Of a stretch of DNA of 31,295 nt, positions 2-31,295 are shown piece after piece; the stretch's first letter is position 1, and every line of letters starts with the position of its first letter. Under the pieces are notes generated by a model. It made no database searches. It was not told where the DNA came from and saw nothing but the letters and a program-made list of their open reading frames with translations. The DNA is taken from the IMG/VR virus record IMGVR_UViG_2617270940_000005, positions 1 through 31,295 of that record. The stretch is one strand, 5' to 3'. This DNA comes from a virus. Lineage: Duplodnaviria; Heunggongvirae; Uroviricota; Caudoviricetes. A program made the position numbers and the translations under genes.

Positions 2-2701
2 AATATAGTTAAATGCGATGTTTTTGACGGTGTTTTCCGCGTTACCAGCAGCGTTAACGGTGATGGTATGTCCATGTGAACCAATCGCAACGGAGTGCGT
101 ATGAGCACCAATACCGACAGTATGTGCGTGTGCACCTGCGCTTGCAGCAGTACCCGATACAGAGTGCGTATGAGCGCCTGCAGAAGAAGTGTTAACACTG
201 TATTTAGAATAATCAGGTGATCCACTTCCCGGAGCACCACTGGAACCACCTGAAACAAATGTCATCGAATGGGTATGTGCACCGGCTGAAGCAGCCGTAC
301 CGCTAACACTATGGGTATGCGCACCAGTGTTATTCGTGGATTTAGTGCCGTAATCAAACGACGATGTGGTTTTCGTCCCCAAATCCGTACTGGATGCGCT
401 GGCGCTGTGGGTGTGCGATTTAATGCCGTCCTGTTCCTGAGACAATACGGCACGACCACTGGCGGGCTTGCCCTTAATCGTCCAGCCACGCATATCAGGG
501 ATCACGCCTGACGGATACGCAACCGCAAGCAGGGGATAGGCTGCCTTATCAAAAGCCTGCCCCTGCATAATGGCATAGCCTGTAGGTACTGAATCAGAAG
601 GCCACGGAATCGCCGCACCTACCGGAAATGAATCCTGCGGCGTCCAAGGTGTCCAGCCACCCGTTGAATACTGGCTGCGGGTATAGCTTCTGGATGTGTT
701 ATACACATAGTAAATTTGTGTTATTCCGGCATTTTTAAGCACAACCAGAGTGCCCGCAAGGTTCTCCGGGTATTTCAGCGATGCGCTTGCATTCGCATTC
801 AGTGGCTGATGGTACAGCCCCGGCGTTTTGTAATTATCCAGATTCTGGTTTGCACCAATCTCAATACTCTGACTGTTAAAAATATCCTGCGATGTAACAT
901 TGACATCATTGGTCAGTGGTTTGCCATTGACCTTACGCTCGCCAGGAACGCGCCCGTTTGCATTATCATTAGCTGCTTTCACTGCTTTCGGTGTCGCGGC
1001 AAACGTTTCAGATGCGCTGTTGGTTGCACTACTGAGCTGGACAATTCCTTTTTGTGCTGTCGTAGCGTCCTGAGCAGTATATTTCCCGTTAGCAAGGTCA
1101 TAGGCTGCCTTTACCGACTTTGGCGTTGCCGCCAGCATTTCAGATGTGCTGTTGGTCGCGTTGCTAAGCTGAACTATCCCTTTCTGTGCTGTCGTTGCAT
1201 CCTGTGCGGTGTATTTCCCGTTAGCCAGGTCATACGCGGCCTTAACGGCTTTTGGTGTTGCCGCCAGTGACTCGGAAGTACTGTTGGTCTCACTGCTAAG
1301 TTGTACTATTCCCTTATTCGTCGTGCTTGCATCCTCAAGCGCCACGGCGGATGCAATATCCTCTGCCCGTTTTGCCGCTGTCTCAGAGCGTGTTGCCGCG
1401 GATTCTGCCGCATTTTTGCTCTGCGCAGCCGCCGTCGCACTGTCTGCCGCTTCCGTCGCCTTCGTTGATGCCGTTGTCGCACTCTCTGCTGCCGCTGACG
1501 CCTGGCGAGCGGCCTCATCTTTTGAAGATGACGCCGAGGAAGCTGAAACAGAGGCAGAGCTTGCAGATTCGGCTGCTGTCTCCTTAGAAGCAGCGGCATT
1601 GTTTTCTGAAGTCTTTGCATTGGTTTCAGAAGATTTTGCCGCCTCTGCTGACTTTTCCGCAGCTGTTGCCTGTTCCGTCGCCTCTGTCGCTTTAGCGGTG
1701 GCATTTGCCGCAGATAACGAAGCGCTTTCCGCAGACTTTTCTGCCGACGTTGCACTTGATGAAGCACTATCCGCGCTTATTGAGGCCGCGCTCGCTGACG
1801 TTTCTGCCGCAGATTTAGAACTGTTTGCAGACAATGCACTCTGTTCGGCAGCAGCTTCAGACGCTTTTGCGTTTGTCTCTGATGCTTTTGCTGCCTTACA
1901 TGAATTTGCAGCTTCTGTAGCTGATGATGCTGCCGCGTTTGCACTCGATGAAGCGTTAGTCTCTGATAATTTAGCCGCATCCTTAGATGCAGAGGCACTG
2001 GACGCTGATGTGGCTGCCTCCGATGCTTTAGTCGACGCCACAGATGCTGATTTTGCTGCCGCTTCTTTTGCCGCTTCTGCGTTTGTTTCAGATTTTTCCG
2101 CAGCAGCTGCACTCTCACTCGCCGCACTTTGTGAAGATACCGCAGCGGATGCACTTTGAGATGCCTGAGAGGCTTTTTCTACAGCAGTGTTGGCACTTTC
2201 TGCCGCAGCGACAGCACTGGCCGCCGCCTCCCGAGCTTTGTCTCCAGCGGCCTCAATCGCATCGGTGTTATTTTTATACCACTCAACGTTTTCGTTATGC
2301 TCGTTGACGATCTGCATTAGCGGCTTAACGGTCACTTCTGTACCGTCTTCACGCTCGATTGTCACATCATCCAGAGCGGTCAACCAACTGCGCATGGACT
2401 TGGAATCAGCCGACATACGCGACATTAGTGCAGTAAAGCGCGCACTAAACTGAGTTAAGTCGCCTTCATAGGTCGTAATGATTCGGCACGGAACTTTAGA
2501 TTGAGTTTCGCCGGTATAAGGTTCTGAGAGGACAATGACCGTATCACTGGTTACGCGCTTGACCTCATACAACTTATTGTCAGGACCAATGACAATCATG
2601 CCCGGTAACACGCCGTTTTCGGTCAAATTCCAACGTGTTCCGATGCCTGATATTGTGTCGCTTCCTTTTGTAAATGTAACAGTACCTTCTCTGTACCACA
2701 T
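2..2701 (-). CDS. stf: Side tail fibre protein, lambda Stf-like; C-terminal few residues lie beyond the window start
   Basis: Not in the ORF track because it has no stop inside the window. ATG at 2701-2699 with AAGGAG upstream. Translation reads [21 protein letters not shown]..., an Ala/Ser-rich coiled region, three 44-aa repeats ([39 protein letters not shown]), then [57 protein letters not shown] and His-rich [29 protein letters not shown], which match the lambda Stf C-terminal half as I recall it. Frame checked at both ends and mid-gene. Confidence 0.85.
949..1340 (-). repeat. Three tandem ~132-bp direct repeats inside stf (44-aa fibre repeats)
   Basis: Units at about 949-1080, 1081-1212 and 1213-1340 are visibly similar at nucleotide level (e.g. 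atttcccgttagc[a/c]aggtcata..gccgccag..ctgttggt..ctgctaag). Confidence 0.8.
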
Positions 2702-26131: not shown

Positions 26132-26762
26132 ATTCCACCTTCACACGTTCTTTGTAGTGCTTGGTGATCTGCATATCCGGGCGCAGCGCGTTCTTCAGAT
26201 CTTCGTGGGTCGTCGCCACCATTACCGTTGCGCCGACCTTACGAGCAGCACGTTGGAGGTTTGACGCCACAACCTGAGCGGTTACCCGGTCGAGAACAGC
26301 ACCAAATTCGTCTGCTGCCCAGACTTTGGCGCCGGACTCGATCAGCTTGGCGATCTTGAGACGGTATTTCTGGCCGTCAGACATCTCGGATGGCTTGCGC
26401 ACAAAAAGATAGGCGTCATTCAATCCGGCCATAGACAGCAAGCCCAGCGCTTCACTGGTGGTTTTGCCCAGCTGGTCGATGACGTTAACCTCATTGTCGA
26501 AATTAAAATTATCGATGGAGGCCACAGAAAGCCCTTCATCTTTCATCTGGCGTTGTAGCTCGCGCAGAACAACAGATTTACCTGAACCGGATTGGCCGGT
26601 GATGTACACCACATCGCCCTGCTTCACTTCCAGCTCCAGATTGTCGTAAAGCGTCCACTCTTTTTCGTCCAGGCCAAGACCGAACGATTCGGCAATCTCC
26701 AGCGTGCGCGTGGTTTTGTTCACGCGAGTCTGAAACGATACATTGATGGTGTATTTGCTCAT
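26124..26762 (-). CDS. Small ABC-type ATPase (nucleotide-binding domain only)
   Basis: 212 aa; Walker A GQSGSGKS, signature-like MSDGQKYRL, Walker B/D-loop KVWAADEFGAVLD, H-loop VATTHEDL; start ATG overlaps the upstream stop (ATGA). Confidence 0.8.
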   Translation of the reverse strand: MSKYTINVSFQTRVNKTTRTLEIAESFGLGLDEKEWTLYDNLELEVKQGDVVYITGQSGSGKSVVLRELQRQMKDEGLSVASIDNFNFDNEVNVIDQLGKTTSEALGLLSMAGLNDAYLFVRKPSEMSDGQKYRLKIAKLIESGAKVWAADEFGAVLDRVTAQVVASNLQRAARKVGATVMVATTHEDLKNALRPDMQITKHYKERVKVEYA

Positions 26763-27427
26763 GCAGCCAGCTCCCCAGAGGAAACTTTCTCCGCATACGC
26801 CACGAAAGCGTCTACCCCGCTTTCTCCCGTAATTTCTTCCATGTGGGCAAGCAAATCCCCAACCACAATGGCAGAGCCAGCAGGGAGCGTTTTAAAGCCC
26901 AATACGTCGATGACTCGGACTTCTTCAGAGGCTACTTCGCGACTGATCCCGGTGTGCTCTTCTTTCTGGCGTTCCGTCTCTTCACCCAGATCGAGCACCA
27001 GAGAGCCTGTTTCCATCTCTTCGGTCATGCTGCCAACAAGCACGTTCAGCTCTCGCTCTTCAAAACCAAAGACCTCAACGTCACCCAGCACCAGGGACTC
27101 CAGTTCCTGCTGCAATTTGATGGCGTCGTAGTCAATACTGGCCAGGCGGTTGTCTTCAAGACGCTTCGCCTTCACTTCTTCTTCGCTCAGATCGTCGCGA
27201 ACGATGACAGGCACACGCTCCAGACCAGCCAGAAGTGCCGCCTCGCGACGACCGTGACCAGTAATGATGACGTCGTGCTTGTCGACCGTGATCGGCTGGT
27301 CAAAACCGCGCTTTTTGATGGCAGCCGCCAGGTCGCGGATCTGCTGTTCGTCATGTTTTTTGGCGTTCATCTCATACGGGATAAGTTCTGCCGGGTTTCG
27401 ATATACGATTTCAAAGTTCTTGGTCAT
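26759..27427 (-). CDS. ParB/Srx-like N-terminal domain protein (second of tandem pair)
   Basis: Start refined to ATG 27427, overlapping the upstream stop (TAATG). ParB-type motif ITGHGRREAALLAGLERVPVIV; acidic helical C-terminal half. Confidence 0.75.
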   Translation of the reverse strand: MTKNFEIVYRNPAELIPYEMNAKKHDEQQIRDLAAAIKKRGFDQPITVDKHDVIITGHGRREAALLAGLERVPVIVRDDLSEEEVKAKRLEDNRLASIDYDAIKLQQELESLVLGDVEVFGFEERELNVLVGSMTEEMETGSLVLDLGEETERQKEEHTGISREVASEEVRVIDVLGFKTLPAGSAIVVGDLLAHMEEITGESGVDAFVAYAEKVSSGELAA

Positions 27428-28107
27428 TACATACGCTCCTTGTAGTAGTCGACCAGCCACACCAAGGCTTCCCCGGCGTTCTCCATTTCGTTACCGGTAT
27501 TGATTCCCTGCTCTTTGATGATGGTTTTGATGGTATCGGCGACGCGATCTGACGCATCGAACGTCACTTTGAAGCGCATCGTCTGGTGTTCAGCACCGAC
27601 TCGCTCGATTTTCTCGCGTTTGTCCTCACCGATCGGCTCGTCATCGCCGCGGGAGAGCGCTTCCAGCGCTTCAAGATCGATAACGGATGCTTTGGCGAGC
27701 GTTGCCGCCATTTCGTCGTCATACGGGGCGATATCAGACAACCGGTAGTCAATTTCAGACTGAATTTCTTCGATTAAGCGTTGCAAAGCGATCTGATCGT
27801 CTTCGCCGTAGCGCTCGTTATCGACGAGAGACATCTGTTTGGCCACCAGGTCGTTAATTTTTCCCACCGAGATGACGGGAACCGTTGAAATGCCCTGCTC
27901 CATCGCGGCACGCCAGCGATGTTCGCCACCGAGAATCTCAAAAATGCCGCCGTCCAGCTCTCGCGCCAGAATTGGCTTAAAAAAGCCCAACTTTTCGATG
28001 GAACCTTTCAGTTTTTCGAAGTTTTGCGCCCCAACGGAGTTGGTATTCCAGGGGTTCGGACGCAGGTTCGCGACTTCCACCTGTAGAATCGTAATTTTCA
28101 CATCCAT
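27427..28107 (-). CDS. ParB/Srx-like N-terminal domain protein (first of tandem pair)
   Basis: 226 aa; LRPNPWN...ILGGEHRWRAAMEQGISTVPVI matches the ParB N-terminal domain arginine-rich motif; first gene of the operon. Confidence 0.75.
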   Translation of the reverse strand: MDVKITILQVEVANLRPNPWNTNSVGAQNFEKLKGSIEKLGFFKPILARELDGGIFEILGGEHRWRAAMEQGISTVPVISVGKINDLVAKQMSLVDNERYGEDDQIALQRLIEEIQSEIDYRLSDIAPYDDEMAATLAKASVIDLEALEALSRGDDEPIGEDKREKIERVGAEHQTMRFKVTFDASDRVADTIKTIIKEQGINTGNEMENAGEALVWLVDYYKERM

Positions 28108-28189: not shown

Positions 28190-28528
28190 ATGACTGTTCG
28201 GATTGTATCAAATGCAGTCAATGCGCTGATTTCTGGCGCTGATGACAACGTGAAACGGCTCGTTCAGGAGATGTTGAGCTATGAAGTGGAGGCTGGTGAC
28301 TGGAAAGGGACCAGCACGATGTTCAACTGGAGTAAAAACGCGTTCCCGGCTGGGTTTGCGAAGCCAGTTGCGACCAATCTTCTGAAAGCTGGCATCAAAT
28401 GCGTGCATGTTCGCAAGGAAAAGCTCCCGCGCTGGGTAAGCCGAATCCGGTGGTTAATCCATTCCCGTATAACCCGGACTACGCGTATCAGGATCAGACA
28501 GTGGAAACACTGGTGCGCGAAGGGATGA
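28190..28528 (+). CDS. Hypothetical protein; possibly the N-terminal segment of the helicase separated by a frame change
   Basis: ATG 28190 with strong RBS AAGGAAAGAGG. The first ~78 codons look protein-like; after ~28420 the frame becomes Arg/Trp-rich, while the helicase frame opens at 28336 with its only start at 28399. Confidence 0.5.
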   Translation: MTVRIVSNAVNALISGADDNVKRLVQEMLSYEVEAGDWKGTSTMFNWSKNAFPAGFAKPVATNLLKAGIKCVHVRKEKLPRWVSRIRWLIHSRITRTTRIRIRQWKHWCAKG

Positions 28529-29748
28529 TGATTGCCCAGATTGCGACGGGTGGCGGTAAATCGAACGTAGCGTGTAAGGCAGCAGCTCGCATTGGTCGTA
28601 TGACGCTGTTTTTAACCACGCGCTCGGTTCTGATGTTCCAGATGGCAGAAAACTTCCAGAAATCCATCGACTACCGCGCGAAGAATGGCGAGCCGTGGCT
28701 GAAAGGTCAGAAAGTTGGGGTGATTGGATCTGGTGAGTTCCAGGTATCGCGCCATATCAACGTTGCCACGGTTCAGACCCTGGCTAGTTTTCTCGAAGAG
28801 CCGTCGCGCGACGCATCTCCAGAGAAAAAAAAGTATCACCTGAAACGCCGAGAACTGGTTAAGCGCTTCCTGTCCAGCGTTTCTCTGCTGATTCTGGAAG
28901 AAGCGCACGAATCATCCGGCTCAAACTTCTACGATATAGCCCGGTTGTGTACCAATGCCGACTACCGTCTGGCGCTGACAGCTACGCCGTTCATGAAGGA
29001 CTCGACTGAAGCAAATATGCGTCTCATGGCCGTTGCGGGTCGCATCGAGATAAAAGTAACGGAGAAATATTTGATCGACAGAGGTATTTTAGCGAAACCA
29101 TACTTTTTATATCATAAAATCGCGTACACTCCAGATGAGGCGCGGATTAGAGCCGAACTTGCTTCAAAACACCTGAATTTTAGGGTTGGAATGAGCACGG
29201 CTTACCAGAAAGCCTATCAGTTAGGTATCGTCTATAATCTGGGCCGCAACGAAGCTATTGTGCGTGAAGCGCTAATGTACAAGAGTCACGGTCTGAACTG
29301 TATGACATTGGTTCGTCTGAAGCGTCATGGTCAGATCTTGATGGAAATGATGAAAGAGAGTGGCCTCAAGGTCGATTTCATCTACGGAGAATCAAACCAG
29401 ACTACCCGACAAGCAAAACTTAATAGTCTGGCGGCAGGCAAGATAGATGTTCTCATTGGTTCAACCATTCTGGATGTTGGTGTCGACGTTCCAAGCGTAG
29501 GCGCGGTGATTCTGGGTGGTGGCGGGAAAGCAGAAGTTGAAATGAGACAGCGTGTCGGTCGTGGCTTACGAGCCAAGAAAAATCAGGCTAACGTGTGCTT
29601 TATTACCGACTTCATCGACGTGAGCAACAAATACCTCATGTCGCATTCATATGAGCGGAAACACATTATCGACACGACGCCTGGGTTTGCCGAGGGGGTC
29701 TTGCCGGTTGGCAGCACATTCGATTTCACTGTTTTGGATAGAGAGTAA
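28399..29748 (+). CDS. SF2 helicase (DEAD/DEAH-type core)
   Basis: Motif I IATGGGKS, motif II LILEEAHE, motif III LTATP, C-terminal helicase motifs (GSTILDVGVDVP, QRVGRGLR). Weak RBS; start sits 130 nt inside the upstream ORF. Confidence 0.85.
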   Translation: MRACSQGKAPALGKPNPVVNPFPYNPDYAYQDQTVETLVREGMMIAQIATGGGKSNVACKAAARIGRMTLFLTTRSVLMFQMAENFQKSIDYRAKNGEPWLKGQKVGVIGSGEFQVSRHINVATVQTLASFLEEPSRDASPEKKKYHLKRRELVKRFLSSVSLLILEEAHESSGSNFYDIARLCTNADYRLALTATPFMKDSTEANMRLMAVAGRIEIKVTEKYLIDRGILAKPYFLYHKIAYTPDEARIRAELASKHLNFRVGMSTAYQKAYQLGIVYNLGRNEAIVREALMYKSHGLNCMTLVRLKRHGQILMEMMKESGLKVDFIYGESNQTTRQAKLNSLAAGKIDVLIGSTILDVGVDVPSVGAVILGGGGKAEVEMRQRVGRGLRAKKNQANVCFITDFIDVSNKYLMSHSYERKHIIDTTPGFAEGVLPVGSTFDFTVLDRE

Positions 29749-29750
29749 GC

Positions 29751-30029
29751 ATGAGCGAGAAACGCGCTATTAACTGCCAGGTTAAGTTAACCGAAAAAGC
29801 AAACGATAAACTAGAGACCTTTCAGAATCGACTGCGTGAACGCAGCATAAAACTGTCAAAGGCAGACATCATCAATCTGGTGCTGTCCAATATGACGATG
29901 GGTGATTTTGATAAGATAGCTACGTCATTAGAGACTACTGCAAAGGCTCGTGAAAAGGTCATGAAGATTTACGAAAACTCGGGTATGACCAAAGAAGATC
30001 TGGCCGATATTCTAAAACGCCTCGATTGA
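29751..30029 (+). CDS. Hypothetical 92-aa protein
   Basis: ATG 3 nt after the helicase stop (translational coupling); charged helical protein; followed by a terminator. Confidence 0.5.
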   Translation: MSEKRAINCQVKLTEKANDKLETFQNRLRERSIKLSKADIINLVLSNMTMGDFDKIATSLETTAKAREKVMKIYENSGMTKEDLADILKRLD

Positions 30030-30034
30030 GCATT

Positions 30035-30060
30035 ATGGCGCCTTGAGGCGCCATGATTTT
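30035..30060 (+). terminator. Intrinsic terminator after the helicase operon
   Basis: atggcgcc-ttga-ggcgccat, perfect 8-bp stem, followed by gatttt. Confidence 0.7.
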
Positions 30061-30088
30061 CGTAAAGATAAGGATTTTGTTCGGTACA

Positions 30089-30511
30089 ATGAAACACGTA
30101 TTACTTCCTCTGGTTGCTGCCTCCGCGTTACTTATCACTGCATGTCAATCTCGTCCTATTCCTGTCTCTGAGGCAAAGCCAGCACCGCAGGCCAGAATAT
30201 TCAAATACCAATCTCCGGCGGCATCGACGCTGGTGGTTATGAGAGATAAAAGCATGGTGGGCGCCGGTTGCGACGCATCGATCTTCATCAATGGCGAAAC
30301 CGTTGCAAAACTGGAAACAGGTGAAAAAGTCACTTTTCATCTGGATGCCGGAGAATGGATTGTTGGCGCCTCACTCGAAGGCGCTGGGCTGTGCGCACTG
30401 AATCCTGCTCGTCAGGAACGCGAGACGATTACCAAAGCTGGCGAGACGAAAGTCTTCCGGGTGTTCACCAGTAATGCTGGTGACATCGACATCTTACCAA
30501 CGACACTGTGA
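30089..30511 (+). CDS. Lipoprotein (signal peptide with lipobox), function unknown
   Basis: Start refined to ATG 30089 (track 30053 lies in the terminator hairpin). MKHVLLPLVAASALLITAC is a lipoprotein signal peptide with lipobox LITA-C. Confidence 0.65.
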   Translation: MKHVLLPLVAASALLITACQSRPIPVSEAKPAPQARIFKYQSPAASTLVVMRDKSMVGAGCDASIFINGETVAKLETGEKVTFHLDAGEWIVGASLEGAGLCALNPARQERETITKAGETKVFRVFTSNAGDIDILPTTL

Positions 30512-30515
30512 CGAT

Positions 30516-31028
30516 ATGACGAATATTACTGACATCACCTACGGCATACAGGCTGAAGTCTGGCCGCGAGACTACGAACATGCTGAAAACATACTTATGT
30601 TCTGGCGGAAGAACAACATTCCTGTAAGAGTCACGCTTGAAGACGGTCAGGTGTTTTGCATGTACGTCTACGGGCTATTGAGCGCAAGAAATAAGCTGAA
30701 CCTCACACCAGATCCGCTTAGCAATACAAATCGTGTAAGGCTCCCTCTTGAGCGCATTAGCACAATTGAGTCAGGCATAGAAGAGGTTGACACTTCATTC
30801 ACAGGTCGACTAACGCTGAACAATGAACAGATGGTTAATCAGCCATCACGCCGTGACTTTTTTGCGATATGTCGCAAGGCTTATCAAAACGACCAATCTA
30901 TAAGGGTCTACATGGCAGACGGTCGTGAAATAGAAGGGGTATCAAGAGGCGTTGATGCTTGCCAGGTCACTCTTAAGTTAGAAGACGGCAGAAAAATACT
31001 TGTTTTCTTCGATTGGGTTGAACGAATC
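30516..31028 (+). pseudogene. Gene with an internally duplicated small domain, 3' end truncated by the IS1 insertion
   Basis: Reading frame runs straight into the IS1 terminal repeat at 31029 (...DWVERIG then IS1-encoded residues to a stop at 31109). Two related segments: NIPVRVTLEDGQVF and QSIRVYMADGREIEGV...ILVFF. Alternative in-frame ATG at 30474. Confidence 0.5.
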
Positions 31029-31295
31029 GGTAATGACTCCAACTTACTGATAGTGTTTTATGTTCAGATAATGCCCGATGACTTTGTCATGCAGCTCCAC
31101 CGATTTTGAGAACGACAGTGACTTCCGTCCCAGCCTTGCCAGATGTTGTCTCAGATTCAGATTATGTCGCTCAATGCGCTGAGTGTAACGCTTGCTGATT
31201 ACGTGCAGCTTTCCCTTCAGGCGGGATTCATACAGCGGCCAGCCATCCGTCATCCATATCACCACGTCAAAGGCCGACAGCAGGCTCAGAAGACG
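31029..31295 (-). mobile_element. IS1 insertion sequence, terminal 267 bp (insB end), continuing beyond the window
   Basis: ggtaatgactccaacttactgatagtgttttatgttcagataatgcccgatgac is the IS1 terminal inverted repeat region; the minus strand encodes the InsB C-terminus. Confidence 0.9.
31044..31295 (-). CDS. insB: IS1 transposase InsB, C-terminal part (5' end beyond window)
   Basis: Translation ...[69 protein letters not shown] matches the InsB C-terminus as I recall it. Confidence 0.85.

Follow-up and report, generated by a model that had tools for sequence, protein, structure and literature searches.

The gene that begins at position 30516 of the window, as we call the whole 31,295-nucleotide stretch of DNA analysed here, is shown by its sequence matches to code for FljA, the phase-1 flagellin repressor, in the version carried by SSU5/pHCM2-type phage-plasmids. 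Its extreme 3' end has recently been clipped by an IS1 element. The intact protein is predicted to be built from two tandem Hfq-like modules and, by analogy with characterised FljA proteins, most likely silences host flagellin post-transcriptionally. As an explanation of the whole locus, a tandem Hfq-like flagellin silencer of a phage-plasmid recently hit by IS1 is one we hold to be reasonably probable. The family is already known and annotated and a hit of IS1 on it is routine; the insertion event is in itself an ordinary one. The features to which the text refers are the following.

28190-30511, plus strand: upstream group of tightly spaced genes on the same strand, a DEAD/DEAH helicase (frameshifted), a 92-aa protein and a lipoprotein
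29751-30029, plus strand: gene of the 92-aa protein in the upstream group
30053-30511, plus strand: lipoprotein gene (PHROG 890, weak DUF2846 match)
30474-30515, plus strand: spurious 14-codon upstream extension of the mechanically listed reading frame, overlapping the end of the lipoprotein gene
30516-31028, plus strand: native part of the FljA-family gene, codons 1-171 of 174 (PF03614, PHROG 1444 and the intact homolog)
30531-30575, plus strand: most conserved motif of the family, D-I-T-Y-G-x-x-A-E-V-W-P-R-D-Y, residues 6-20 (family alignment)
30549-30551, plus strand: codon 12, CAG (Gln), which is CCG (Pro) in pYUXYEH3934-1 and in almost the whole phage-plasmid clade
30576-30773, plus strand: predicted Sm/Hfq-like module 1 (AF2, pLDDT 83-95)
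30849-31028, plus strand: predicted Sm/Hfq-like module 2 (both models; sub-threshold Pfam Hfq/LSM match over residues 123-165)
31020-31028, no strand assigned: the 9 bp abutting IS1, GAACGAATC, a duplicate of which is expected at the other IS1 end if the insertion was a simple one
31029-31109, plus strand: 26 IS1-derived codons and a stop, which replace the native LPF and its stop (ORF list compared with the intact protein)
31029-31295, minus strand: partial IS1 of 267 bp, including the 3' part of insB (31044-31295) and reaching the end of the contig

Identity of the gene and its neighbourhood

The protein matched the Pfam family PF03614 (Flag1_repress, 'Repressor of phase-1 flagellin') at 235.9 bits (E 3e-70), where the cutoff is 24. 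This match covered profile positions 1-170 of 170 on residues 6-171, and the same family was matched by all 44 of the 44 aligned relatives. A match to PHROG 1444 was also found. One relative, P0089, which carries the NCBI name 'phase 1 flagellin gene repressor FljA [Salmonella enterica]', was 36% identical over 170 aa (E 9e-37), and the phage-plasmid clade as a whole has 36-42% identity to characterised or chromosomal FljA proteins. The GenBank record of Salmonella phage SSU5 labels its own copy a 'putative repressor of phase 1 flagellin' and a copy of the pHCM2 type from Typhi bears the name 'flagellar synthesis: repressor of fliC'. The family has very few members, as a profile search retrieved only 32 proteins at E<=0.001 among 1.84 billion representatives. 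NCBIfam gave no match to the protein, and a sequence search of the PDB returned no relative but only noise (ferritin, E 0.16).

Like the FljA proteins of Salmonella enterica, of the flk-type loci of E. coli and of pBSSB1 in S. Typhi, to which its homology runs over the full length, the phage-plasmid protein belongs to the same length class (174 vs 179 aa), has a matching two-module layout over the aligned length and carries the same invariant motifs, TYG..E..PRDY, RDFF..C and DWVxRI. The positions that are invariant in the family are T8, Y9, G10, E14, P17, R18, D19, Y20, R113-D-F-F116, C119 and D166-W-V-x-R-I171. In contrast to those FljA proteins, the phage-plasmid protein falls in a separate clade and ends in a short LPF tail in place of the TSSDYAE-type tails, while the copy in the window is carried on a temperate siphovirus-like phage-plasmid, after helicase, small-protein and lipoprotein genes, and has a tail encoded by IS1 in place of its last 3 residues. 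Some members of the search results deserve a separate remark. P0115, a protein of 1,359 aa, had five separate weak matches to positions 25-69 of the FljA profile, that is to module 1 (E 7e-4), and is possibly a large protein with repeated Sm-like modules. Fragments of the phage-plasmid proteins P0081 and P0207 carry the labels Gemella morbillorum and Finegoldia magna in the source databases, which at 74-94% identity to the enterobacterial proteins is likely due to contamination or mislabelling.

The remainder of the window belongs to an SSU5-type phage-plasmid, with 98-99% identity over 24 kb to E. coli plasmids of ~106-115 kb that are mostly non-mobilizable and encode tail, portal and terminase genes; the region of interest is 83% identical to that of SSU5. 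The FljA-like gene, whose ATG lies 4 nt past the stop of the lipoprotein gene, is the last of the helicase, small-protein and lipoprotein group, in which matches to PHROG 890 (lipoprotein) and PHROG 1466 were found, and it is followed by a hypothetical gene. The order of helicase, 92-aa protein, lipoprotein and FljA-like gene is common to the plasmids pYUXYEH3934-1 and pLAO18 and to SSU5. For the native downstream protein of 216 aa, the homologs found were at most 98% identical. In E. coli, Salmonella, Klebsiella and Enterobacter, homologs of the FljA-like protein are common on similarly sized contigs.

The canonical fljA gene immediately follows an alternative flagellin gene, in an operon of the fljBA type. 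No alternative flagellin gene was found next to the phage-plasmid gene, which has the helicase, small-protein and lipoprotein genes upstream and the hypothetical gene downstream. Since no flagellin gene is annotated in SSU5, and since a tblastn search with E. coli FliC against the window and SSU5 loci gave nothing better than E 0.8, the phage-plasmid copy is an orphan FljA with no partner flagellin gene, and it differs from FljA elsewhere in that neither the position upstream nor the whole element holds a flagellin gene. In the SSU5/pHCM2-type phage-plasmids examined the orphan sits at a fixed position.

Several other properties of the neighbourhood were observed. At 28414-28418, within the helicase gene, the window has four A's where pYUXYEH3934-1 has five (2375-2379 of its locus, L001), which breaks up the helicase of 519 aa into two ORFs, one of 112 and one of 449 aa; the cause may be either a true frameshift or a sequencing error in the homopolymer. 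The lipoprotein gene is intact in the window and SSU5 and is represented by two short ORFs in pLAO18 (L003, 4050-4472), where it is apparently disrupted. Divergent from the helicase and FljA-like group, on the minus strand at 26759-28107, are two adjacent genes with ParB_N domains and a gene for an ABC-type ATPase, an arrangement that is kept in SSU5 and related plasmids. At its other end (2-421, minus strand) the contig starts within a gene whose product has many His-x-His repeats of the G-A-H-T-H-S type and is annotated as tail fibre in relatives; this end, too, lies in repetitive sequence.

The IS1 junction and the fused frame

An IS1 terminal repeat had been placed at 31029 in the earlier note, and it does start exactly there. 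Positions 31029-31051 read directly as the IS1 terminal inverted repeat GGTAATGACTCCAACTTACTGAT of the insB-proximal end, and a degenerate IS1-IR pattern matched once in the window where 0 matches were expected (none in 100 shuffles). The minus-strand ORF at 31044-31295 matched the Pfam family DDE_Tnp_IS1 (PF03400, E 2.3e-44, profile positions 49-131 of 131), and the 267-bp tail of the window shares 94-98% identity with IS1 copies annotated in phage records. Both marks of IS1, the inverted repeat and an IS1-type InsB transposase, are present. The 3' part of insB is convergent with the FljA-like gene and reads towards it. Like IS1 insertions in other phage and plasmid genomes, for example the IS1 of phage P1, the element has the canonical inverted repeat, insB and a base-exact junction, but only one IS1 end lies within the window. 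Read directly against each other, pYUXYEH3934-1 has GGGTTGAACGAATC followed by CTTCCATTTTAA where the window has GAACGAATC followed by GGTAATGACTCC.

The mechanically listed ORF of 211 aa (30474-31109) had been taken for a fusion of ~171 native residues with residues encoded by IS1, and it proved to consist of 14 upstream, exactly 171 native (30516-31028) and 26 IS1-encoded residues, with its stop at 31107-31109. In the family alignment all but three homologs start near the ATG at 30516, within a few residues. The gene called on the contig begins at 30516 and has a product of 197 aa; no gene with a 211-aa product is on record.

Recovery of the intact gene from relatives that lack IS1, which the earlier note had proposed, was successful. 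The protein of pYUXYEH3934-1 has 174 residues and ends in ...FDWVERILPF, and the copies of SSU5 and pLAO18 have the same C-terminal ending. Because the intact gene ends 12 nt past the junction (three codons and the stop), IS1 sits at the very 3' end of the native gene and not in the middle of an open reading frame, as had been believed. The gene in the window keeps residues 1-171 and has the last three (LPF) swapped for the 26 residues from IS1, so that the description of the gene as truncated holds for 3 of 174 residues and for those only. It had also been stated that a natural end of the gene at this point in related genomes would speak against a truncation, and this is nearly what the relatives show. 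The junction falls immediately after I171, the last invariant residue of the family.

The insertion was suggested at the outset to be a recent event, and this agrees with the data. Over the 4,989 nt up to the junction, only two real differing positions separate the window from pYUXYEH3934-1, its closest relative, and the only substitution, at window position 30550, changes Pro12 to Gln. A search of 5,426 complete E. coli genomes and of PLSDB found no place with the same junction at >=80% query coverage. In a collection of 15 billion proteins, the 197-aa fusion protein (WP_148726026.1) is found on a single contig, that of the window, and the intact 174-aa protein (WP_121856464.1) on 79 contigs. 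Given the absence of the junction from the genomes and plasmids searched, the single contig with the fusion protein and the near-identity to pYUXYEH3934-1, the IS1 event is recent and private to the isolate. As a separate observation, the change of Pro12 to Gln lies inside the highly conserved N-terminal motif, at a position where Pro is near-universal in the phage-plasmid clade and not in chromosomal FljA proteins.

Predicted fold and the effect of the insertion

Two AF2 models were built, one of the 171 native residues (pLDDT 82.7) and one of an intact 174-aa relative (pLDDT 85.3), in which the C-terminal half is nearly identical to that of the window protein. The alignment behind them is shallow, with 44 sequences of one narrow family. 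In both models the chain forms two tandem modules, each of a helix and five strands. Module 1 has its helix at residues 21-32 and its strands at 36-41, 46-55, 60-64, 73-77 and 81-86. Module 2 has its helix at 112-124 and strands at 128-132, 138-147, 150-154 and 160-164, the fifth strand starting with the four residues VERI. The small beta-rich domains that were expected from the sequence are thus found in the models. The relatedness of the two segments, also part of that expectation, is supported as structure by their common helix-plus-five-strand topology, while in sequence it is marginal, with BLASTP giving E 0.011 over 14 residues and hhalign giving E 0.009 over 17 columns. The orientation of the modules relative to each other is uncertain, because the pTM is 0.54-0.60.

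The modelled modules have the features of the Hfq Sm fold, an N-terminal helix and a bent five-stranded sheet, and the best 50 PDB matches of a Foldseek search with the intact model were all Hfq. A search for viral folds in BFVD gave only single-domain Sm-like matches or matches of poor rmsd. In sequence, the Pfam Hfq family (PF17209) scored 17.6-18.6 bits against a gathering cutoff of 27, with such sub-threshold matches in 15 of the 44 family members, and hhalign of the N-terminal module with E. coli Hfq aligned the stretch R-x-x-x-[IV]-P-V-x-[IV]-x-L-x-x-G (E 0.003). One database source names a member of the cluster 'sRNA-binding regulator protein Hfq'. Since the tests made on sequence only, for the duplication, Rof and Hfq, are marginal (E 0.002-0.4), the statement on the fold rests on the models, which suggest that the FljA-like protein is a tandem of two Hfq-like Sm modules after an invariant N-terminal peptide. 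Residues 6-20 (DITYG..AEVWPRDY) have a pLDDT of 47-62 in both models, being modelled with low confidence or disordered, and could fit a segment that becomes ordered only when RNA or a partner is bound.

The likeness to Hfq consists in the helix-plus-five-strand Sm topology of each module, in a weak Sm1-like sequence signal and in the role in RNA binding that is known for the FljA family. Unlike Hfq, a single-module subunit, the FljA-like protein has two modules per chain and an extra invariant N-terminal peptide, and it stays below the Pfam Hfq gathering threshold (about 18 vs 27 bits). The relatives that are characterised have one specific mRNA target, whereas Hfq has a global role with sRNAs. 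FljA, a long-known regulator for which the search run found no sequence relative in the PDB, is confidently modelled as a tandem Hfq-like protein, and no publication stating such a fold for FljA was found in the literature searched.

In the models the junction lies within the last beta-strand of module 2, which it interrupts. The intact protein has a strand at residues 168-173 (V-E-R-I-L-P, pLDDT about 89), and in the 171-residue model no strand is formed at the 168-171 end and the pLDDT falls to 67. As the junction follows I171, the second half of strand 5 is replaced by G-N-D, and a largely hydrophobic 26-residue tail is added. From this position inside the last strand, the fusion allele is probably weakened or unstable. 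What follows D-W-V-x-R-I differs between family members both in length and in sequence (LPF, STL, TLS, LAFN, TSSDFVEK), and for this reason the C-terminus may be tolerant of change and the fusion allele could remain functional. The inactivation that had been suspected is accordingly weakened as a claim, as only 3 of the 174 residues are lost, and retains the predicted cut of strand 5 in its favour; loss of function by the insertion is plausible in the light of the models, at roughly even odds. The insertion also alters what follows the gene. Directly after the native stop in pYUXYEH3934-1 (L001, 5009-5042) folding gave a hairpin with a 14-bp stem (-16.2 kcal/mol, z -4.4), which was not called by a simple terminator scan. 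IS1 now parts the FljA-like gene from this hairpin, which adjoins the stop in intact relatives and the DNA of which is absent from the window.

Alternative readings and biological meaning

A complete IS1 is ~768 bp long, with about 9 bp of the target site directly repeated on its two sides. The window corresponds to contig JNPB01000033.1 of the draft assembly GCA_000703445.1 in its full length (31,295 bp) and ends 267 bp into IS1, before the second IS1 end; the contig stops there because the assembler could not cross the repeat, and the second end and the target duplication are for that reason outside the view. The junction might then mark the border of a deletion, inversion, composite transposon or cointegrate brought about by IS1, with non-native DNA beyond IS1. 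The window holds no native downstream sequence, and pYUXYEH3934-1, which is typed as mobilizable and at 188.5 kb exceeds the other close relatives listed, of about 106-117 kb, has a size that would fit a fusion or added DNA. Draft assemblies commonly break at IS copies, whatever lies beyond, so that the end of the contig inside IS1 is routine; the junction coincides to the base with the canonical start of the IS1 inverted repeat, and the data seen hold no sign of a rearrangement. In an exact-pattern scan of IMG/VR, the far junction predicted for a simple insertion (GAACGAATC-CTTCCATTTTAAATC after the left end of IS1) and the observed junction each had 0 matches. We regard an event other than a simple insertion as unlikely, and an assembly chimera as its least likely version. 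A reading that concerns the protein itself was the likeness to Rof/YaeO put forward in the earlier note, under which the FljA-like protein would be a Sm-like Rho binder that modulates Rho-dependent termination for the phage-plasmid. Rof has been described as a Sm-like homolog of Hfq (PMC11018626), the N-terminal module aligns in register with E. coli Rof over 53 columns (E 0.0018, at a probability of only 15%), and the two share a small beta-rich module with a first strand of the L-x-L-x-D-G type. The C-terminal module, in contrast, shows nothing against Rof (E 0.43, probability 0.1%), the Pfam family ROF (PF07073) matched neither the whole protein at E<=1 nor either half at E<=10, and Rof has one module where the FljA-like protein has two. 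A single Sm-like domain of about 85 aa with Rof as its closest structure was not found; the models are closer to Hfq, which is ahead of YaeO by about 3 Z units, and there is no Rof among the best 50 Foldseek matches. Together with the strong full-length match to the FljA family (E 3e-70), the characterised members of which act on fliC mRNA, this leaves of the comparison the Sm fold class but neither the family nor the implied binding of Rho, and makes a Rof-type protein very improbable.

The main rival to silencing of host flagellin accepts the family and disputes the target, as the protein could be a FljA-family RNA binder directed at mRNAs of the phage-plasmid or at other host transcripts, sharing with FljA the scaffold and not the target. 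The RNA target could differ because the fljB-fljA operon context is missing, and such a difference would agree with an element that has no partner flagellin gene, with an identity of only about 36% to characterised FljA, with a gene that ends a conserved helicase, small-protein and lipoprotein group holding no flagellar gene (in the window, L001-L003 and SSU5), and with Hfq-like folds being generic RNA binders. The invariant N-terminal and C-terminal motifs of FljA are, on the other hand, fully kept, and so narrow a family, at 32 representatives in 1.84 billion proteins, argues for one specialised function. It was also demonstrated that FljA-type proteins work across genera, as a plasmid with fljA(z66) turned motile E. 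coli non-motile (PMC2652032). A different target is in our view rather doubtful.

Silencing of host flagellin is thus the function we prefer for the intact protein. FljA-type proteins act post-transcriptionally by preventing the translation of fliC mRNA (PMC2652032), and a Hfq-like fold fits this known action on mRNA and not on DNA. Like canonical FljA, the intact protein would bind to the 5' leader of the host's fliC (flagellin) mRNA and keep it from being translated. As the element brings no replacement flagellin, flagellin production would be lowered or abolished in a lysogen that has the intact gene, while the IS1 fusion allele would be weakened or unstable. Nothing relevant on FljA in phage-plasmids, SSU5 or pHCM2 was found in the literature searched.

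A more far-reaching reading, which joins an orphan FljA that silences flagellin without replacing it, a FljA family that is a duplicated Hfq acting in rings, and an IS1 allele that restores motility, is put forward tentatively. If it is true, there would be a lysogenic conversion in which carriers of SSU5/pHCM2-type elements are non-flagellated, and such carriers could exclude flagellum-dependent phages or lower flagellin-triggered immunity. The FljA family would be a covalently duplicated Hfq, with Hfq-like rings specialised for a single mRNA leader, and the IS1 allele a natural loss-of-function or hypomorphic variant with motility regained. The IS1 allele and its near-identical intact twin in pYUXYEH3934-1 form a natural pair on which the silencing of flagellin may be tested. 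An orphan FljA at a fixed position gives rise to a simple and testable hypothesis, namely that SSU5/pHCM2-type elements may switch off the flagellin of their host.
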